From positions 832,001 to 896,000 of the forward strand of contig CBDBDR010000017.1 of assembly GCA_965203965.1 (NCBI GenBank): a stretch of 64,000 nucleotides of DNA. The letters are read 5' to 3'. A program made the position numbers and the translations under genes. The notes under the pieces were generated by a model. That model saw only the letters and a program-made list of their open reading frames with translations, searched no databases and was not told the origin of the DNA. This document shows positions 38,531 to 46,767 of this stretch, one piece after another (the first letter of the stretch is position 1; every line of letters begins with the position of its first letter). Source of the DNA: Thermodesulfobacteriota bacterium (GTDB taxonomy: Bacteria > Desulfobacterota_D > UBA1144 > Nemesobacterales > JAJCZQ01).

Positions 38531-39220
38531 TTAATGTTCATGTCCCTCTGCCAGAGCAATATAAATAGCCGACAAAATGGTAAAAATAAACGCTTGTAAA
38601 AAAGAGACGAATATACCAAGCCCAACAAAAACTGCAGGTAATAAGAAATGCGTCAGATTTGTAAATACCCCAAGAACCATATGGTCACCCGTAATGTTCA
38701 TAAAAAGCCTTAGTGACAAAGATACAGGCCTCACAAGGTGACTTATCAACTCAATTATTATCATCAGCGGAGCAAGAAACAATACGGGTCCTGCAAAGTG
38801 CTTTAAGTAAGATATGCCGTGCTCTTTAAACCCATAGTAGTTATACATAACAAAAATAATAGCCCCAAGAGCAAGAGTTGTGTTCAAAGACCCGGTGGCA
38901 GGTAAAAACCCTGGAACAATTCCAAGTAGGTTCAAAAAAAGGATAAAAATAAATGAACCACAAAGAAGCGGAAAATATTTTTTTGCTTTCTCACTCGAAC
39001 CAAAAATATTTTCAAAAATACCAAATAAGAAATCCAGACAGATAACCTGAAAGAAATTATTAAGGGATACTTTTGAATCCGGAACCACTGCAGAATCTTC
39101 AGAAACCATTCCTCTTAAAGCTATGCCGACAACAACAAGTAATAGCAGTACAAGAACAGCACCAAGTATATGGTCGTGCTCTATCATACCTACAAAGGTA
39201 AACCAGCTAAAATGCTCCAT
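38531..39220 (-). CDS. atpB: ATP synthase F0 subunit a
   Basis: NLLGIVPG, RPVSLSLRLFMN, LQAFIFTILS. Confidence 0.96.
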   Translation of the reverse strand: MEHFSWFTFVGMIEHDHILGAVLVLLLLVVVGIALRGMVSEDSAVVPDSKVSLNNFFQVICLDFLFGIFENIFGSSEKAKKYFPLLCGSFIFILFLNLLGIVPGFLPATGSLNTTLALGAIIFVMYNYYGFKEHGISYLKHFAGPVLFLAPLMIIIELISHLVRPVSLSLRLFMNITGDHMVLGVFTNLTHFLLPAVFVGLGIFVSFLQAFIFTILSAIYIALAEGHEH

Positions 39221-39584
39221 TAACTCCTTTTAATCCTCTTCCAATAATAACAAATACAACTGCGGTCAGGGCTATAATAAAACCATAAATATTTAATTTT
39301 GCAAACACCAACAAAGCCAATAAGATCCCAAGCAGTATTAAAAGTTTTAACACGAATAAAAAAACGATGAATTTGCCTGAATATCTCTTGGTAACTGTGG
39401 AATTCACAATAAATTTTATCATTACAAAATCAATCAGAAACAGCAATCCCCCCAACCCTACAGCGATTGCAACCTGCTTTTGCTGAAATAACAGATTGCC
39501 TACTACAAAAAGTAGAATAACAACTGCAATTGCTTTTTCCGTTCCACCAAAAATTACAAACTCTGAGTTATTATTTTCTGCCAT
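39207..39584 (-). CDS. atpI: ATP synthase protein I
   Basis: Four hydrophobic helices directly upstream of atpB. Confidence 0.75.
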   Translation of the reverse strand: MAENNNSEFVIFGGTEKAIAVVILLFVVGNLLFQQKQVAIAVGLGGLLFLIDFVMIKFIVNSTVTKRYSGKFIVFLFVLKLLILLGILLALLVFAKLNIYGFIIALTAVVFVIIGRGLKGVNGAF

Positions 39585-39789
39585 CTTTATTTTTAACCCT
39601 CAACACCCTTATCAGCAGAGTAATTGCTGAAAATACACCAAGAATTAATCCTATTAAGGTAAAGTATGGTTCTTCATTATCAAATTTACTGTCCAAGTAT
39701 CTACCCAGCAATAATCCGGCGGCAACTGAAAATCCAAAATTACTTCCAACGGCAATAAAGTAAATCCACTTTTGCTCTTTCTTGGGCAT
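39571..39789 (-). CDS. AtpZ/AtpI family protein
   Basis: G..LGRYLD.KF..EPYFTLIGLILG pattern; start placed at MPKK. Confidence 0.85.
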   Translation of the reverse strand: MPKKEQKWIYFIAVGSNFGFSVAAGLLLGRYLDSKFDNEEPYFTLIGLILGVFSAITLLIRVLRVKNKDGRK

Positions 39790-39793
39790 TGAC

Positions 39794-41077
39794 CTACAAA
39801 TTTCCAAGCGCTTTTTTTATTACCCGCAGAGTTTTTTCCACATCATAATCAGAATGAGATGATGATACGAATGCAGTCTCAAACTGGGAAGGGGGAAACA
39901 TAACACCGTTACTTAAAAGCATCCTGAAAAATTTGGCAAATCTACTTGTATCAGATTTTGTCGCACTTTTGTAGTCTGTAACTTCATCTGATCCGAAGAA
40001 AATTGTGAACATGGAACCAAGACAATTCACTGATGCACAAACTCCATATTTTTTTATGAAAGTTTTTATTTCTTTTACCATTTTTTCCGATTTGTTATTT
40101 ATATCGGCAAAAAAATTCTTTTTCATAATTTTATTAAGACTTGCTATACCGGCTGCCATCGCAACAGGGTTGCCGGAAAGCGTGCCCGCTTGATAAACAG
40201 AACCTTCTGGGGAAATATGGCTCATTATCTTTCTGCTTGCCCCGTAGGCTCCAACTGGCAAGCCACCACCTATGATCTTACCAAGACAAGTGATATCAGG
40301 CTTTACACCGAAAATCTTCTGAGCTCCACCCAATCCAAGCCTGAAACCGGTAATAACCTCATCAAAGATAAGGAGCGAGTCGTATTGCTTCGTTATGGAT
40401 CTCAGCCTTTTTAAAAAACCTTTAACAGGAGGAACAACACCCATGTTGCCGGCAACCGGCTCTATAATGACACCTGCGATCTTATTACCGTATTTCTCGT
40501 ACAGCTTTTCTACGGAATAAATATCGTTATACCGTGCAATCAACGTTTTGGAGGTAAAAGATCTTGGCACTCCCGGGCTGCTTGGGTAACCAAAGGTAGC
40601 GGCACCTGATCCCGCTTTTACAAGAAGGTGGTCAGCATGTCCATGGTAGCATCCTTCAAACTTGATAATGTGGTCTTTTCCCGTATATGCTCTTGCCAAC
40701 CTTATGGCGCTCATTGTTGACTCAGTACCTGAACTTGTCATTCGCACCTTTTCAATTGACGGCACACAATCAACCAAAATCTTCGACAGCAATATTTCAT
40801 ACTCACATGGCGCCCCGTAGCTAGTCCCAAACTCAGATGCTTTCTTTATAGCATTTAACACATCTTTATCTGCATGTCCAAGTATCAACGGCCCCCATGA
40901 TCCTAAATAATCAATGTATTTATTACCATCAACATCAAATATCTTTGAGCCTTTTGCTCTTGAAATGAAAATCGGACCTCCACCTACTGCATTGAACGAT
41001 CTTACCGGGCTGTTCACTCCACCAACAAGGTATTTTTGGGCTTTGTGGAATAACTTATCAGATCTTTTACGGGACAT
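39794..41077 (-). CDS. hemL: Glutamate-1-semialdehyde 2,1-aminomutase
   Basis: GGVNSPVR, SGTE, FEGCYHGH, FDEVITGFR, GKIIGGGLP, YQAGTLSGNP. Confidence 0.98.
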   Translation of the reverse strand: MSRKRSDKLFHKAQKYLVGGVNSPVRSFNAVGGGPIFISRAKGSKIFDVDGNKYIDYLGSWGPLILGHADKDVLNAIKKASEFGTSYGAPCEYEILLSKILVDCVPSIEKVRMTSSGTESTMSAIRLARAYTGKDHIIKFEGCYHGHADHLLVKAGSGAATFGYPSSPGVPRSFTSKTLIARYNDIYSVEKLYEKYGNKIAGVIIEPVAGNMGVVPPVKGFLKRLRSITKQYDSLLIFDEVITGFRLGLGGAQKIFGVKPDITCLGKIIGGGLPVGAYGASRKIMSHISPEGSVYQAGTLSGNPVAMAAGIASLNKIMKKNFFADINNKSEKMVKEIKTFIKKYGVCASVNCLGSMFTIFFGSDEVTDYKSATKSDTSRFAKFFRMLLSNGVMFPPSQFETAFVSSSHSDYDVEKTLRVIKKALGNL

Positions 41078-41180
41078 ATCTTTTTTAGTTTCTTCGGTTT
41101 CAGCACACGGGTCAACAACCTCTCTTTTGCTAACCTGAACTGAAATTCAGAAATAGAAATACAGAGATACAAATACCCAA

Positions 41181-41957
41181 TTACAATTTAAACTCGGACA
41201 TTAGCTTTTTAGCTTCATTTGCCTCTGATGATTCTGGATATTTATCAATGAGAATCTGCAAAAACAGCCTTGCTTCTTCTTCTTTATTTAACTTTATTAA
41301 ACTCAGAGGCTGCTTCAAATATGCTAAAGGAACACGTGGGTCATCTTTGTATCCGTCAATGAAATTTTGATACTCAAGTATTGCCTCTTCATAAAACCCT
41401 TCATTGTAATAGGAATCAGCTATCAAGAAAGCTGCGTCAGGTTTTTTAGATGAATTCGGGTATTGTCGCAGGAAACTACGGAATTTTTGTCTGGCATTGG
41501 CATAGTTGCCTAAGGCAACATCTTTGTCGGCAGCTTCAAACAGTGCTTCTTCTAATTCTTGTTTTGTGGGCTGCTCGCTTTGCTCTTGCACATCCTTATC
41601 AATTTCGGGGAGATTCAATGCGGGAAGACTCAATGGTGGAACGGGGACAACATCTTTATCTGAAACATCGTTTTTGATGTTATCCGCTTGTTTTTCAAAC
41701 AACAACACCCTTCGTTCAAGATCATAAACTTTTATTTCCAGCTGAAAAAGCTGGTTTGATAAATCTACACCTCTATCTACATCTCTATTGAGATCACTCT
41801 CTCCACTTCCCGGACGTTGCTGCTTTAACAGTTTATCAACTTTCCTTTCAAGCCTACTTTGCCTTGCGTATATACCACCCACGTCATCTTGTGTTACCAC
41901 ACAAGATGCAGTAAATAACACCACCACGGCAACAATTGATATTAACAAAAACTTCAC
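41181..41957 (-). CDS. cpoB: Tol-Pal system TPR protein CpoB/YbgF
   Basis: Lipoprotein signal, coiled coil, C-terminal TPRs (YPNS, YPES); directly downstream of pal. Confidence 0.85.
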   Translation of the reverse strand: MKFLLISIVAVVVLFTASCVVTQDDVGGIYARQSRLERKVDKLLKQQRPGSGESDLNRDVDRGVDLSNQLFQLEIKVYDLERRVLLFEKQADNIKNDVSDKDVVPVPPLSLPALNLPEIDKDVQEQSEQPTKQELEEALFEAADKDVALGNYANARQKFRSFLRQYPNSSKKPDAAFLIADSYYNEGFYEEAILEYQNFIDGYKDDPRVPLAYLKQPLSLIKLNKEEEARLFLQILIDKYPESSEANEAKKLMSEFKL

Positions 41958-41966
41958 TTCTACGAT

Positions 41967-42698
41967 CTAGTGTGTAACAAAATGTGCTCTTCTGTTTTGA
42001 CTGTAAGCATAATCCGATGTACCTGAAGACCACTTTTCAGTCTCACCCTTACTTATTGCCTTGATCATCTCTGGAGAAACGCCCTTTCCTATCAGATAAT
42101 GCATAACTGAGTCTGCCCTGCGTTGTCCGAGAGCCAGATTATACTCTTCCGTTCCTCTAACGTCAGCATAACCCTCTATTACTATAATCGCCGATCCGCC
42201 GCAAACATCACAAACATGATCGTCTGATTTTTTCATTTTTTTCATAATGTATTTTGCATTTTTATCAAGCAATTTTTTTGAATGAGATGTTATTTTTGCA
42301 CTGTCATAATCAAACAATATACCTTTAAGACGGGCTGAAGACTTAAGTTCATGCGAACCCATCATTTCAACTTCCTTTTGCATCTCGTCTTCAGTTTTGC
42401 CTTCCATAAACTGCTCGCTAGCCATCTTTCCCTGTCCCTCAATAGCCTTGAACTTTGCTTCTTCGAGCAAACCCAATGCTTCGGTCTCCTTGCCTTCTCT
42501 CATAAGGAGCTTAGCTCTTGCAATTAAATCTACTGCTTCATCGTATGCGGGTGCATTTTTAACACCTGCTTCCTGTGTTGATTTTAAAACGGACTCTGTG
42601 TCCATTAGCTGCTTGGTAAACTTGGACACGCAACCAGCAGTAAGCCCCCCCGTTATTAACAAAACAAGAACAAAAACCTGAAATCTGACTTTACTCAT
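41967..42698 (-). CDS. pal: Pal/OmpA-family peptidoglycan-associated lipoprotein with helical N-domain and a CxxC insertion
   Basis: Lipobox LTAG-C, ILFDYDS, IEGYADVRGTEEYNLALGQRRA, SKGE, NRRA. Confidence 0.88.
   Translation of the reverse strand: MSKVRFQVFVLVLLITGGLTAGCVSKFTKQLMDTESVLKSTQEAGVKNAPAYDEAVDLIARAKLLMREGKETEALGLLEEAKFKAIEGQGKMASEQFMEGKTEDEMQKEVEMMGSHELKSSARLKGILFDYDSAKITSHSKKLLDKNAKYIMKKMKKSDDHVCDVCGGSAIIVIEGYADVRGTEEYNLALGQRRADSVMHYLIGKGVSPEMIKAISKGETEKWSSGTSDYAYSQNRRAHFVTH
42199..42218. repeat. Left arm of 20-bp perfect inverted repeat (inside pal)
   Basis: CCGCAAACATCACAAACATG is the exact reverse complement of 43097-43116. Confidence 0.92.
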
Positions 42699-42754
42699 AA
42701 CTTGTCACCTCCTAAAATCTTGCTGGTCATTATACCATAATTAGTTAAAAGAGT

Positions 42755-43099
42755 CTAAAATATTTGCAGGATGACTGAAGCCAAACTGCCAAGCACTCCA
42801 CCTCGCTGCCCTAAACCCCCGCTTAACCTTGTAAAAATACCCTGAGTGAAGTTTTGAGACAGCAGTTGCGTGGCACTATTTGCGATAGCTCTGAGGGTGC
42901 TTTTTGTAATGTCTCCCAAATTCTTAAAATTGCCCGTAATGACATTAAAAAATAAGTCCGAGAATGTGTCGCGAATCCAAGACATCGTATAACTGCCCCA
43001 TTGCGTCACCAATTTGTTCTGACGTTTGAGATAGCTCCTCAAAGCTCCCTTTAACCCCGTCCTCCTCTTTTTTCTGGTATAATGCCCATTATGGAACAT
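42755..43099 (-). pseudogene. Probable fragment of a phage tail tape-measure-like gene
   Basis: Amphipathic TFSDLFFNVITGNFKNLGDITKS...GGVLGSL resembles tape-measure C-terminal regions; no convincing start. Confidence 0.45.
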
Positions 43100-43330
43100 G
43101 TTTGTGATGTTTGCGGAGTTGACAAAAGAGAGGTTGAGCCATGCTGGGACGATATGTCCTGTTCTGGTTGCGGAAGATACAAATCCTTCTGCGAGAGACT
43201 GGGAGAAGGAGAGTGTATTACCGATGACATCTTTGACCTTGTCATCATGTCTCCTCTCTTGCTGATCGGTGGCTTTCTTGTTCTTTGCTTCATTCTTGCC
43301 ATTCTCGGAGCCCTCTTTGGTTGGTCTTGA
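43091..43330 (+). CDS. Small Cys-rich membrane protein
   Basis: CDVC...CSGC plus C-terminal TM helix; TGGTATAAT ends 7 nt before the ATG (leaderless-like); hairpin plus T-run at about 43337-43368. Confidence 0.6.
   Translation: MEHVCDVCGVDKREVEPCWDDMSCSGCGRYKSFCERLGEGECITDDIFDLVIMSPLLLIGGFLVLCFILAILGALFGWS
43097..43116. repeat. Right arm of 20-bp perfect inverted repeat
   Basis: CATGTTTGTGATGTTTGCGG encodes HVCDVCG, as the left arm does in pal. Confidence 0.92.
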
Positions 43331-43746
43331 TACATTCCGACATTTATGAGCACTACGTCGGGTTTTTTGGCGGAATTATTGACGCTTTAAATGGGGATTA
43401 AACGGGATTTAAACGGTGTTTAACAAGCGATTATTTTTCCACTTACAAAAAATGACCGAAAACAGAGATAGTGTTGACTGCCAACGAGTTCCTAACCCCC
43501 CTTTAACATTGACTTTTTTTCTTTAAAATGTCCATAAATTCAGAGGTCAGCGATAATAAGTATCAAAAACTACAAATATTAAAAAGAGTAATGATTACAG
43601 GAGTTATGACAGAAAAAAGGTAAAATTTAAGCAATTTACTTAAATATAGCGAAAAACAGTTGATTTGACGGATAAAAAAGACAAAAAACTTTTCCAACTC
43701 AACACCCCGAGTAGCCTCGCAACGTCATATAAGAATCGGGTCTGGG

Positions 43747-45459
43747 TCACTCAATATGAGCAGATTTTTGCCTGTCCCACGTATCACTCGTAATTCCCTG
43801 CTCTCTCAATTTGTTCTTTTGAGTTCTCTGTGTCCCAGTTTTGGGAAAGGATTTTACAAACCTGACATACCTTGGGATCATAAAAGCAGGCATATTGGGT
43901 TCCAGAAATTTTACTAATTGATCCGGGTCTATCTTTACTCCCTCTTTAGAAATAATCAATATCATTATTTCGTTTTCCGCATATTTACCTTCTTCCGACT
44001 TAATCCCTATTGCTGCCGACTCCTCTACATCCGGGTGGGAGTTAACTATCTTTTCTACCTCAAAAGAACTTACATTCTCTCCTCTTCTCCTTATGTAATC
44101 TTTCACACGATCAACAAAATATATATATCCGTCTTCATCCATTTTACCGGCGTCTCCAGTGTGAAACCAGAAATTCCTGAAATCCTGCACCGTCTTTTCG
44201 GGCATTTTGTGGTAATAGTGGAGCATTATGTTGGGGATTCTTGGTCTTACCACTATCTCACCTATATCGCCTCTTGAAACCTCAATATCCGTTTGGGGGT
44301 CAACGATCTTTATTTCGTAATTTGGAGCTTCTTTTCCACATGATCCTACCCTGAACGGCTCACCCGGTCGCATCCAGGTGCACTGCCCGATTTCCGTCAA
44401 ACCATAGCCTTCCATAATTCGGATATTAAACCTATGCATAAACTCCTCTACAATATCATGTGGAGCCGGCGAACCTAAAACTAACTTTACCTTGTGCTGT
44501 GTCTCTTCTAAAACGGGTGGAGTGTTCCAGACAAAGTAGCATATAGTCCCGACTATATTAAACTTTGTCACCTCATGGTCTTTCATCCACTTCCAGAAGT
44601 TGCGGGCACTGTATTTTTCTTCCACAACTGCCTTGGCACCCCTTATGAGCGCCGGATAAACGGTCATTACCATTGCGTTTGAATGAAAAAGTGGCAGACA
44701 GGTAAAGCAAACATCGTTTGGACCCACATCCATAATTTCAACGTAGTTTCTTGCACTACTGTAATCCGCTGCTGAAGGTCTCATAACACCTTTTGATCTT
44801 CCAGTAGTCCCCGACGTATACATAAGCCTCGCATAATCCATGAAAGTAACTTCAATTCTCGGATCCTTTGAACTTTGCCCGTTTATAAAATCCGTGTAAG
44901 AGATCATATTTTTAAATTTAAATCCATGCCTTTTAAATTTAGGCTTTCCATCCTTCGTCCAAACAATAATGTGTTTAACTTGTGGAATTTTGTCCGCTAT
45001 CGGTGGCATCCTGTCAAGATATTGTTCGGCAATAAAAAGAACTTTTGCATCCGAGTTGTCAATAACATATTGAAGGAAGTCCATCACGTATGCCGTATTG
45101 ATCGGCACCATGACCGCCCCCATTTTCAGTATGCCAAACCATGTAATGACGTAGTCATCAGAGTTTGGCATATATACTGCAACCTTTTCCTGCTTTTCTA
45201 TACCGAGACTGACCAAACCGTTTGCGATCTTGTTAGCAAGTTGGTTTGTCTTGTGGAAGCTAATGGGGTTTTTATACCCGAACTGTAGAAAGGGTTTCTT
45301 GCCAAACTCTCTTGCTTGATCTTTCAAAATGCGTGGAAGCACCCACTCTGCCATATCTTCTTTCAGATACCACTCAACGTCAAACTTGCCGTTTTCCCTC
45401 TTGTAACTGACCGTGTGCATTAGGTCTTTTGGTTTGGTCTTGGAAATCTTTTTTGCCAT
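43747..45459 (-). CDS. ATP-dependent acyl-CoA ligase (CaiC-like)
   Basis: MYTSGTTGRSKG, LPLFHSNA, EGYGLTE, WFHTGD, IRRRGENVSSFEVE. Confidence 0.92.
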   Translation of the reverse strand: MAKKISKTKPKDLMHTVSYKRENGKFDVEWYLKEDMAEWVLPRILKDQAREFGKKPFLQFGYKNPISFHKTNQLANKIANGLVSLGIEKQEKVAVYMPNSDDYVITWFGILKMGAVMVPINTAYVMDFLQYVIDNSDAKVLFIAEQYLDRMPPIADKIPQVKHIIVWTKDGKPKFKRHGFKFKNMISYTDFINGQSSKDPRIEVTFMDYARLMYTSGTTGRSKGVMRPSAADYSSARNYVEIMDVGPNDVCFTCLPLFHSNAMVMTVYPALIRGAKAVVEEKYSARNFWKWMKDHEVTKFNIVGTICYFVWNTPPVLEETQHKVKLVLGSPAPHDIVEEFMHRFNIRIMEGYGLTEIGQCTWMRPGEPFRVGSCGKEAPNYEIKIVDPQTDIEVSRGDIGEIVVRPRIPNIMLHYYHKMPEKTVQDFRNFWFHTGDAGKMDEDGYIYFVDRVKDYIRRRGENVSSFEVEKIVNSHPDVEESAAIGIKSEEGKYAENEIMILIISKEGVKIDPDQLVKFLEPNMPAFMIPRYVRFVKSFPKTGTQRTQKNKLREQGITSDTWDRQKSAHIE

Positions 45460-45549
45460 TTATAACTATTTTCCTATTATTTTACAAAGACGTTCAAGGA
45501 GAATATTACTCAAACATACTGAATGGGTAAACTATATTTTATCCCGTTA

Positions 45550-46767
45550 TCAACTTCTCGGATCAAATATCTCCCTCGCTATAAGCATCTTATGAATTTC
45601 ATTTGATCCCTCATATATCTCACCAACCTTTGAATCTCTGTATATCTCTTCAACCTTGTAGTTGGATCTGTCATGTCCCAGTTCAACCATTAAACCCAGC
45701 CCTCCGAATATTTGCACGGCATCCCTCGCCATGTCAACTGATACTTTTGACCCGTAAAATTTTGCACCAGACGATTCCAATACCGGGAATTTATTTCCCC
45801 TGTCAATTGAGAGAGCGCTCTTTACGTATAGATTTCTGGCGTTCTCTATCTCTATTGCTCTCTCTGCCATCAAAAACTGCCAGTGCTGAAATTGACTTAT
45901 CTTTTTTCCGAAAGCTCTTCTCTTATCCATAAACCCTACACACTCATCAAAAGCTGACTGTGCCATTCCAACACCACTTGCTCCGATACCGGTTCTCCCA
46001 TACATTAAGGCACCCACGCAAACCTTCAAGCCATCTCCTTCCCTGCCAATCAGGTTTTCCTCGGGAACTTCAACGTTATTAAAATATATATCGTAGGTCA
46101 ACTCACCTCTGTTACCCAGTTTTTTGTCTGGCTCACTCACGCTACATCCCTCAGAATTCAAGTCAATAACCAACATGCACGGTCTGCCACCAATGTTGAC
46201 TAGGGTTGAGACGTAATCTGCAACCCCTGCGTTTGTTATATATCTCTTCTGACCACTTATCACATATTTCTTTCCTCTCTTAATCCCTTTGGTTATCAAT
46301 GAGTCTGTCCTCACATCGGAACCTGATTGAGGTTCGGTCATTGCAAATGCCCCAATTGAGCTACACTCCAGGATCGGCTTCAGATATTTCGTCCTAATAT
46401 ATTCAGAGCCGAAACTGAGGCTTTTTCCTGCGAGCAGAAAATGTGCATTCACGGATCCCGCAAAACTGGCGCTCACGTAAGCCAACTCCTCAGTAAGAGA
46501 TACCGAGGCACAAGCGGGATACTTTAATCCCAGCCCCCCATCTGACTTTCCGAACGGAACTCTGAAAAGACCTTTCTCTGCCATTGATCTGAAAAGCTCC
46601 CAAGGGAAATTAGCGTTATCTTCGACTTTCTGTCCTATCTGATATGCTTGTGGTAACAACTCATCTTCAGCAAACCGCCTGTATTTTTCACGTAACTCTA
46701 ACGTTTCATCGGGAATAAGCTGATCATTATAAAGTTTATTTTGCATCCTTGGAGGTAATTTTCTCAT
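45550..46767 (-). CDS. Acyl-CoA dehydrogenase
   Basis: AFAMTEPQSGSD, GQKRYITN, R.AFGK.I..FQ, AVQIFGG.G, YRDSK..EIYEGSNEI. Confidence 0.95.
   Translation of the reverse strand: MRKLPPRMQNKLYNDQLIPDETLELREKYRRFAEDELLPQAYQIGQKVEDNANFPWELFRSMAEKGLFRVPFGKSDGGLGLKYPACASVSLTEELAYVSASFAGSVNAHFLLAGKSLSFGSEYIRTKYLKPILECSSIGAFAMTEPQSGSDVRTDSLITKGIKRGKKYVISGQKRYITNAGVADYVSTLVNIGGRPCMLVIDLNSEGCSVSEPDKKLGNRGELTYDIYFNNVEVPEENLIGREGDGLKVCVGALMYGRTGIGASGVGMAQSAFDECVGFMDKRRAFGKKISQFQHWQFLMAERAIEIENARNLYVKSALSIDRGNKFPVLESSGAKFYGSKVSVDMARDAVQIFGGLGLMVELGHDRSNYKVEEIYRDSKVGEIYEGSNEIHKMLIAREIFDPRS

Follow-up and report, generated by a model that had tools for sequence, protein, structure and literature searches.

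Inverted repeats that lie in two coding regions recall two described systems, gene-overlapping invertons and short-range template-switch mutations. Gene-overlapping invertons are known and widespread, and of more than 11,000 predicted by computation, manual inspection of long reads had confirmed only 22 (PMC10028968). In template-switch models, the strand being synthesised makes a brief excursion to the opposite strand of the same fork, takes a nearby stretch there as its template and then returns; in the four-point model, the products are reverse complements of neighbouring sequence that arise within a single fork (PMC5453318). In the classic bacterial cases, the quasi-palindrome arms involved in such mutations are separated by tens of bases (PMC7202029; PMC5453318). 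Here, we analyzed a stretch of 64,000 nucleotides (nt), hereafter the window, from the main contig of a Thermodesulfobacteriota bacterium (GCA_965203965.1; CBDBDR010000017.1, positions 832,001 to 896,000), in which an exact 20-nt inverted repeat links the gene of a Pal-like lipoprotein (pal) to a small orphan open reading frame (ORF), termed ORF82. The repeat is probably a static scar left by a single templated inverted copy.

One arm of the repeat (42199..42218, minus strand) lies inside the Pal-like gene (41967..42698, minus strand; 243 residues), where it encodes residues 161-167, and the other (43097..43116, plus strand) covers codons 3-9 of the small ORF when counted from the ATG at 43091. 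The exact 20-mers are separated by 878 nt, and both copies encode HVCDVCG in frame, one in a 243-residue OmpA-like lipoprotein and one in an ORF of 82 codons, just as the preliminary description of this locus had reported. When the arms are extended (42199-42221 and 43094-43116), they agree at 22 of 23 positions. The 20-mer itself is composed of two similar 9-mers and does contain the internal 7-nt repeat about which that description had cautioned. No third match to the 20-mer occurs in the window at up to three mismatches, and two matches were found in none of 100 dinucleotide shuffles. Genome-wide, at the same tolerance, these two copies are the only ones in an assembly of 17 contigs and 1,990,012 bases with an estimated completeness of 99.48%.

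The arm in the Pal-like gene belongs to a lineage-specific insertion of 33 nt (42195..42227, minus strand), which adds SDDHVCDVCGG directly before IIVIEGYAD, in a predicted loop between helix 138-157 and strand 172-177. An insertion of about 12 residues ahead of the IEGxAD region, lacking in canonical Pal, had been proposed; its presence, place and absence from homologues hold, and its length is 11 residues. Forty relatives were searched, 34 of which gave a match, and the best orthologue was aligned from the 19 covered by the 20 best-matching loci; the insertion is missing from all 19. It is likewise missing from 119 of 121 database proteins (the best 120 of 3,617 matches plus one cluster member), and both carriers are this organism's own: the protein described here and a variant identical to it at 242 of 243 positions (P0121). 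The corresponding segment measures 16 residues in 118 of the 121 proteins, 15 in one and 27 in the two carriers. Among 5.8 billion clustered proteins, the next-best Pal homologue is 53% identical. Judged from these alignments, the insertion is derived and unique to this organism. An AlphaFold model of the Pal-like protein, built from an alignment of 24 sequences (mean predicted local distance difference test score, pLDDT, 84.8), places residues 158-171 in coil, and residues 161-170, with a pLDDT of 52, form the lowest-scoring block of the protein. The insertion is thus predicted to be a disordered surface loop in which extra residues would be tolerable. A further peculiarity of the protein lies in the EGYCD column, where all 119 other homologues have Cys and this one has Ala (42165-42167, pal codon 178). 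The same protein that lost this Cys gained two in the insertion.

How often a repeat of this length would arise by chance can be gauged from the main contig (1.508 Mb), which holds four exact inverted pairs of at least 20 nt at separations of 30-2000 nt; the remaining three belong to two larger inverted duplications. In three order-2 Markov simulations of that contig the longest inverted pairs were 19, 18 and 16 nt, and the 20-nt length alone only modestly exceeds the genome-wide null. Chance is nonetheless untenable because one arm sits within a lineage-specific 33-nt insertion of a conserved gene. In public collections, the 20-mer was found at 16 metagenome and eight genome loci of unrelated organisms. 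In 21 of these 24 loci the longest open frame reads MFVMFA, in transporter-like and Leu-tRNA-synthetase-like contexts, and the other three (L034, L044 and L045) read HVCDVCG. The flanks of L034 are those of the transporter set, L044 is the N-terminus of a ribosomal L28-like protein, and the context of L045 was not recognised. None of the 24 had a Pal-like or ORF82-like context within the 60 residues inspected. Two other origins for the repeat were considered and discarded: the genome's own L28 gene as a source of the 20-mer, since its start differs, and terminal repeats of a mobile element, since the enclosed segment holds the orthologous 5′ part of pal together with its promoter.

In the scenario that we favor, some 20-23 nt would have been copied as the reverse complement between the 5′ end of ORF82 and, 0.9 kb away, the stretch of the Pal-like gene that encodes the loop. 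Most likely, this would have happened by a template switch during replication, confined to one fork, or by repair synthesis filling in with nearby sequence. The copy would have become part of the 33-nt in-frame insertion in pal, and the added disordered CxxC loop would have been tolerated between helix 1 and strand 2 of the OmpA-like domain. Two features expected of template-switch products were found: the insertion is derived relative to outgroups, being present in none of the 19 orthologues and none of the 119 other homologues, and its core is the reverse complement of nearby sequence, matching 43094-43116 at 20 of 20 nt (22 of 23 when extended). For the rest of the insertion and its flanks, no match of at least 12 nt was found within 39000-46500. 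The preliminary description had named the scar of a past template switch as its alternative, and it is this alternative that the evidence favors. We infer both the mechanism and the direction of copying, and for the latter we somewhat favor ORF82 as the donor, since the CxxCG there has another CxxCG as its partner, in the manner of a zinc ribbon.

The orientation of the locus was followed in assembled contigs of 4 of the 13 listed runs, which come from two studies and include one variant strain. Contigs of 9,908, 8,313 and 22,915 nt from three runs are collinear with the reference over 41500-43279, with 0, 6 and 0 differences, respectively, and in the fourth, low-depth run short contigs cross each arm. 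In the contigs of these four runs, neither strand-change joints nor loose ends were found at the arms; all contig breaks fall at 43230-43440, at the start of the paralogous stretch and of the dispersed repeat (both described below). Both arms are intact in the variant strain, which is the run with six differences (X2). Five of these six differences fall within a 378-nt stretch (42600-42977) that spans the 5′ end of pal, its promoter and the region of a third open frame, ORF114.

Several points weigh against a static scar copied from ORF82. Only 20-23 of the 33 inserted nt have a template, and the remaining 10-13 nt are unmatched locally. The distance of 878 nt between source and copy goes beyond the classic cases. 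The state before the event is not visible, the closest Pal homologue being only 53% identical. The loss of one Cys together with the gain of two, as read from the alignment, hints that the insertion may be non-neutral. Only the reference orientation was seen, but contigs drop rare variants, so that it is only a frequent second orientation that is excluded in these runs. Lastly, copying in the reverse direction is possible, with the motif arising in pal and then being copied outward, because the pal loop shows 9-nt tandem duplications: ATGAAAAAA occurs twice in tandem (42228-42245, pal codons 152-157, encoding MKKMKK) directly upstream of the insertion, and the 20-mer is itself made of two 9-mers. 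The loop-coding region of pal seems to be slippage-prone.

A different origin was put forward in the preliminary description, namely a shufflon-like switch. In its programmed form, a site-specific recombinase would flip 42219-43096 and yield Pal 1-167 joined to a Cys-rich membrane tail, together with a signal-less C-terminal fragment of Pal upstream of cpoB. Of the hallmarks of an inverton, the locus shows only the inverted repeat, exact over 20 nt with 878 nt between the arms, which two divergent genes read in a common frame; the enclosed segment also contains both promoter-like sites. Partly gene-overlapping inversions are also on record, 733 of them from long reads (PMC10028968). The geometry was described correctly: a recombination event in the repeat would swap the 3′ parts of the two genes without loss of frame. 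However, one of the three frames of the 20-mer contains TGA, so a surviving in-frame insertion would share the frame of its donor about one time in two, and a common frame is expected that often without any switch. A search of the genome for additional copies of the 20-mer and for invertases, as had been suggested, found neither. Serine recombinases (PF00239) and IS110/Piv-type enzymes (PF01548) each gave zero matches in the genome, which is 99.48% complete but divided among 17 contigs, and PF00589 matched only two proteins, both far from the window: XerD (365.6 bits against a cut-off of 329.6) and an XerC-like protein (334.2 bits against 335.15). The window, as had been cautioned, holds no recombinase. 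With two genomic copies of the site at up to three mismatches, there are no alternative shufflon cassettes; the contigs of all four runs, the variant strain included, show a single orientation, and inversion would cut the genome's only OmpA-like domain between helix 1 and strand 2. A programmed switch consequently finds hardly any credence with us. A rare, unprogrammed inversion, by general recombination or by a further template switch between the arms, would instead maintain a small subpopulation with a broken pal, and we consider this unlikely. Its appeal is that the arms are identical over 20 nt and only 0.9 kb apart, and that the spacer of an inverted repeat can become inverted when the template is switched between its arms (PMC5453318; PMC8604942). 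Yet no inverted contigs, joints or loose ends were seen in the runs covered, and a product that lacks the sole OmpA-like tether would probably be selected against. Moreover, efficient RecA-dependent recombination in Escherichia coli requires a minimum length that arms of 20-23 nt would at best just reach. Bolder still, and very unlikely in our estimation, is a newly born and still rare inversion site, introduced in frame by the templated copy into the only OmpA-like envelope tether of this sponge-associated bacterium. If true, occasional inversion without a dedicated invertase would give a membrane-anchored truncated Pal and a leaderless C-terminal fragment of Pal, and a gene-overlapping inverton would be seen at the very beginning of its emergence.

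The static-scar reading must also be set against two further rivals. The 20-mer might be a shared functional element kept identical by selection, either as a CxxC loop with a redox or metal role in Pal, replacing the lost Cys of EGYCD, or as a 20-nt sense sequence present in both mRNAs that a single regulator would target. The Cys of that column in all 119 other homologues, with Ala and two new Cys residues here, fits the former variant, and the motif has been kept in three haplotypes (the reference, the X2 strain and P0121). Against this, the loop is predicted to be disordered, and the haplotypes differ by less than 0.4%, so that conservation among them carries little weight. The RNA fold of the ORF82 5′ region is ordinary (z = -0.93), no regulator or small RNA is known, and Rfam holds no relevant match. 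We therefore regard selection for a shared element as doubtful. Least probable of all is coincidence or an assembly artefact. A 19-nt inverted pair within 2 kb did appear in one of the three simulated chromosomes, and the internal 7-nt repeat and the occurrence of the 20-mer at 24 loci of unrelated organisms are further points in its favor. But one arm lies exactly in a lineage-specific insertion, 21 of those 24 loci read MFVMFA and none is Pal-like or ORF82-like in the 60 residues inspected, and independent contigs of two studies reproduce the region with 0 differences. The preliminary description had reasoned that a CxxC insertion conserved in relatives without the small ORF would make the match a coincidence; this is contradicted by its absence from the 19 orthologues, and ORF82 is likewise unique to this organism.

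The Pal-like protein carries a lipoprotein signal (Cys23), a helical N-terminal part with a weak match to DUF4398, and an OmpA domain (PF00691, 58.9 bits against a cut-off of 27.2) that is the only PF00691 match in the genome. Its score against the Pal equivalog model of NCBIfam (TIGR02802) is 92.2 bits, below the threshold of 125.35. Nine nt downstream of pal lies a ybgF/cpoB-like gene (41181..41957, minus strand) that encodes a tetratricopeptide-repeat (TPR) protein, with 98.0 bits against a cut-off of 90.1 for TIGR02795 and additional matches to Pfam TPR and YfiO. A TolB-like gene is located about 650 kb from pal (G000:C17:224252-225406; 320.3 bits against a cut-off of 343.15). Upstream of pal, a promoter-like site (42729..42757, minus strand) consists of TAGACT, a 17-nt spacer and TATAAT with an upstream TG, and is a consensus match only. 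The TGGTATAATG decamers that had been described as a pair of outward-facing extended -10 elements occur at 42728-42737 (minus strand) and 43075-43084 (plus strand), both within the enclosed segment; the one on the pal side forms part of the full promoter-like site, whereas the one on the ORF82 side, an extended -10-like TGGTATAAT (43075..43083, plus strand) upstream of the small ORF, lacks a -35 adequate for the promoter scan. A second inverted match, of 17 in 19 positions, pairs 41116-41134 with 43118-43136; its right arm directly adjoins the 20-mer arm of ORF82 and its left arm lies in the spacer between cpoB and hemL. Since pairs of similar score occur elsewhere in the same 6 kb, this match is probably due to chance, although the adjacency is curious.

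ORF82 can be read from 43091 to 43330 (79 residues) or from 43082 (82 residues) on the plus strand and would encode a protein with a Cys-rich N-terminal part and a C-terminal membrane helix. It has seven Cys residues and two CxxCG knuckles, CDVCG and, 20 residues on, CSGCG. Of its two possible ATG starts, the one at 43082 falls within the -10-like hexamer and the one at 43091 follows the hexamer by 7 nt; judging by this spacing, a leaderless ORF82 mRNA whose product begins MEHVCDVCG is possible. Homologues of ORF82 were found neither in the 40 relatives nor among 5.8 billion clustered proteins (lengths of 43-139 residues searched), nor did it match Pfam or NCBIfam, and none of five versions of the spacer ORFs is a called gene in a collection of 15 billion proteins. 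A full HMMER scan of 1.84 billion representatives returned P0122 as the sole match, which we judged to be an artefact, as this 1,733-residue tandem-repeat protein has seven short matching stretches whose score is summed over the repeats. In the ESM Atlas, the best score was 0.87 against a threshold of 0.9, and the nearest named clusters, being below threshold, provide only a lead toward small zinc-ribbon proteins. A single-sequence model of ORF82 (mean pLDDT 65.9) is confident for the membrane helix at 46-76 only and is uninformative on a zinc ribbon. A paralogue of the membrane-helix half, truncated at its N-terminus, lies at G000:C17:1014381-1014530, where it follows another gene and neighbours a partial copy of the dispersed repeat. 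The two are 65% identical as proteins and share an identical core of 44 nt, and their mismatches number 9, 4 and 10 at the three codon positions, of 43 each. The variant strain has one difference in ORF82, which is synonymous, and the guanine-plus-cytosine (GC) content of ORF82 by codon position resembles that of real genes. Although these data are thin, ORF82 is plausibly a real orphan gene.

Between pal and ORF82 lies a 114-codon open frame, ORF114 (42755..43099, minus strand), in which all three strain differences are non-synonymous and GC content by codon position is atypical. A homologue search with ORF114 gave none and it is not a called gene; on these similarly thin data, it is probably not a conserved protein gene. 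The gene order of an AMP-binding enzyme, pal, cpoB, hemL and atp genes is common to this organism and its nearest complete relative (G001), but the spacer between pal and the AMP-binding (acyl-CoA-synthetase-like) gene (43747..45459, minus strand) measures 1,049 bp here and about 190 bp in that relative. ORF114, ORF82 and one copy of a dispersed repeat are located in the additional DNA, and alignment of the two spacers fails to define the borders of an insertion because they are too diverged. By this comparison, ORF82 and the DNA around it are lineage-specific. The dispersed-repeat copy (43361..43645) has 13 blastn matches in the genome, itself included, and three copies are about 285 nt long. 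The repeat has a core of about 80 nt with reiterated TTTAAAC and GATTAAACGG-like motifs, and some copies adjoin tRNA-like 3′ ends; it has no Rfam match and no convincing consensus fold. Over 41000-46000, Rfam gave only a chance snoRNA match (E = 0.94).

Elsewhere on the main contig (C17), exact inverted pairs occur at G000:C17:1332488-1334293 (52 and 21 nt) and 1439969-1441045 (46 nt), and nested pairs of 17 and 18 nt at G000:C17:464117-466123; such pairs probably mark inverted duplications. The other 16 contigs of the assembly (C1-C16), which are small, differ from the main contig in containing long microsatellites of CT and AC as well as numerous long inverted repeats, and may represent DNA of another organism binned with this genome.

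Compared with the Pal of the Tol-Pal system, the protein studied here shares the lipoprotein signal at Cys23, the C-terminal OmpA-like domain with its conserved NRRA-type motif region, and a ybgF/cpoB-like gene immediately downstream. It differs in scoring below the equivalog cut-off, in its long helical N-terminal part, in the distance of about 650 kb to the TolB-like gene, and in the unique 11-residue CxxC loop. Compared with gene-overlapping invertons and shufflons of the Hin, Gin and Rci type, among them the "partial intergenic invertons" described in PMC10028968, the likeness consists of inverted repeats in two coding regions and of an exchange of 3′ parts that recombination would make in frame. 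Unlike in those systems, the genome search revealed no invertase, the sites amount to one pair without alternative cassettes, and no second orientation was seen in the contigs covered; the parts to be exchanged would be non-homologous domains, and the OmpA-like domain would be left disrupted in one of the products. The locus also illustrates how weakly an inverted repeat by itself argues for phase variation. If inverted molecules were found, the locus would show an inversion site arising before any dedicated recombinase.

The closer likeness is to short-range template-switch mutations, as in the quasi-palindromes of the Ripley type and the four-point model of Loytynoja and Goldman (PMC5453318). 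With these the locus has in common a derived insertion whose core is an exact reverse complement of nearby sequence, and a new perfect inverted repeat that needs no dedicated enzyme. In contrast to them, the two sequences are 878 nt apart where tens of bases are typical, a template accounts for only 20-23 of the 33 inserted nt, and the copy lies in frame in a second gene, to which it transfers a CxxCG motif. Read as a scar, the locus would show cleanly, in nature, what a short templated inverted copy can do: a zinc-knuckle-like CxxCG motif would have passed between an orphan gene and the gene of a conserved envelope protein, with the perfect in-frame inverted repeat as a by-product of the copy. 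Template-switch scars are a known kind of mutation, and this locus is one instance with an unusual outcome.

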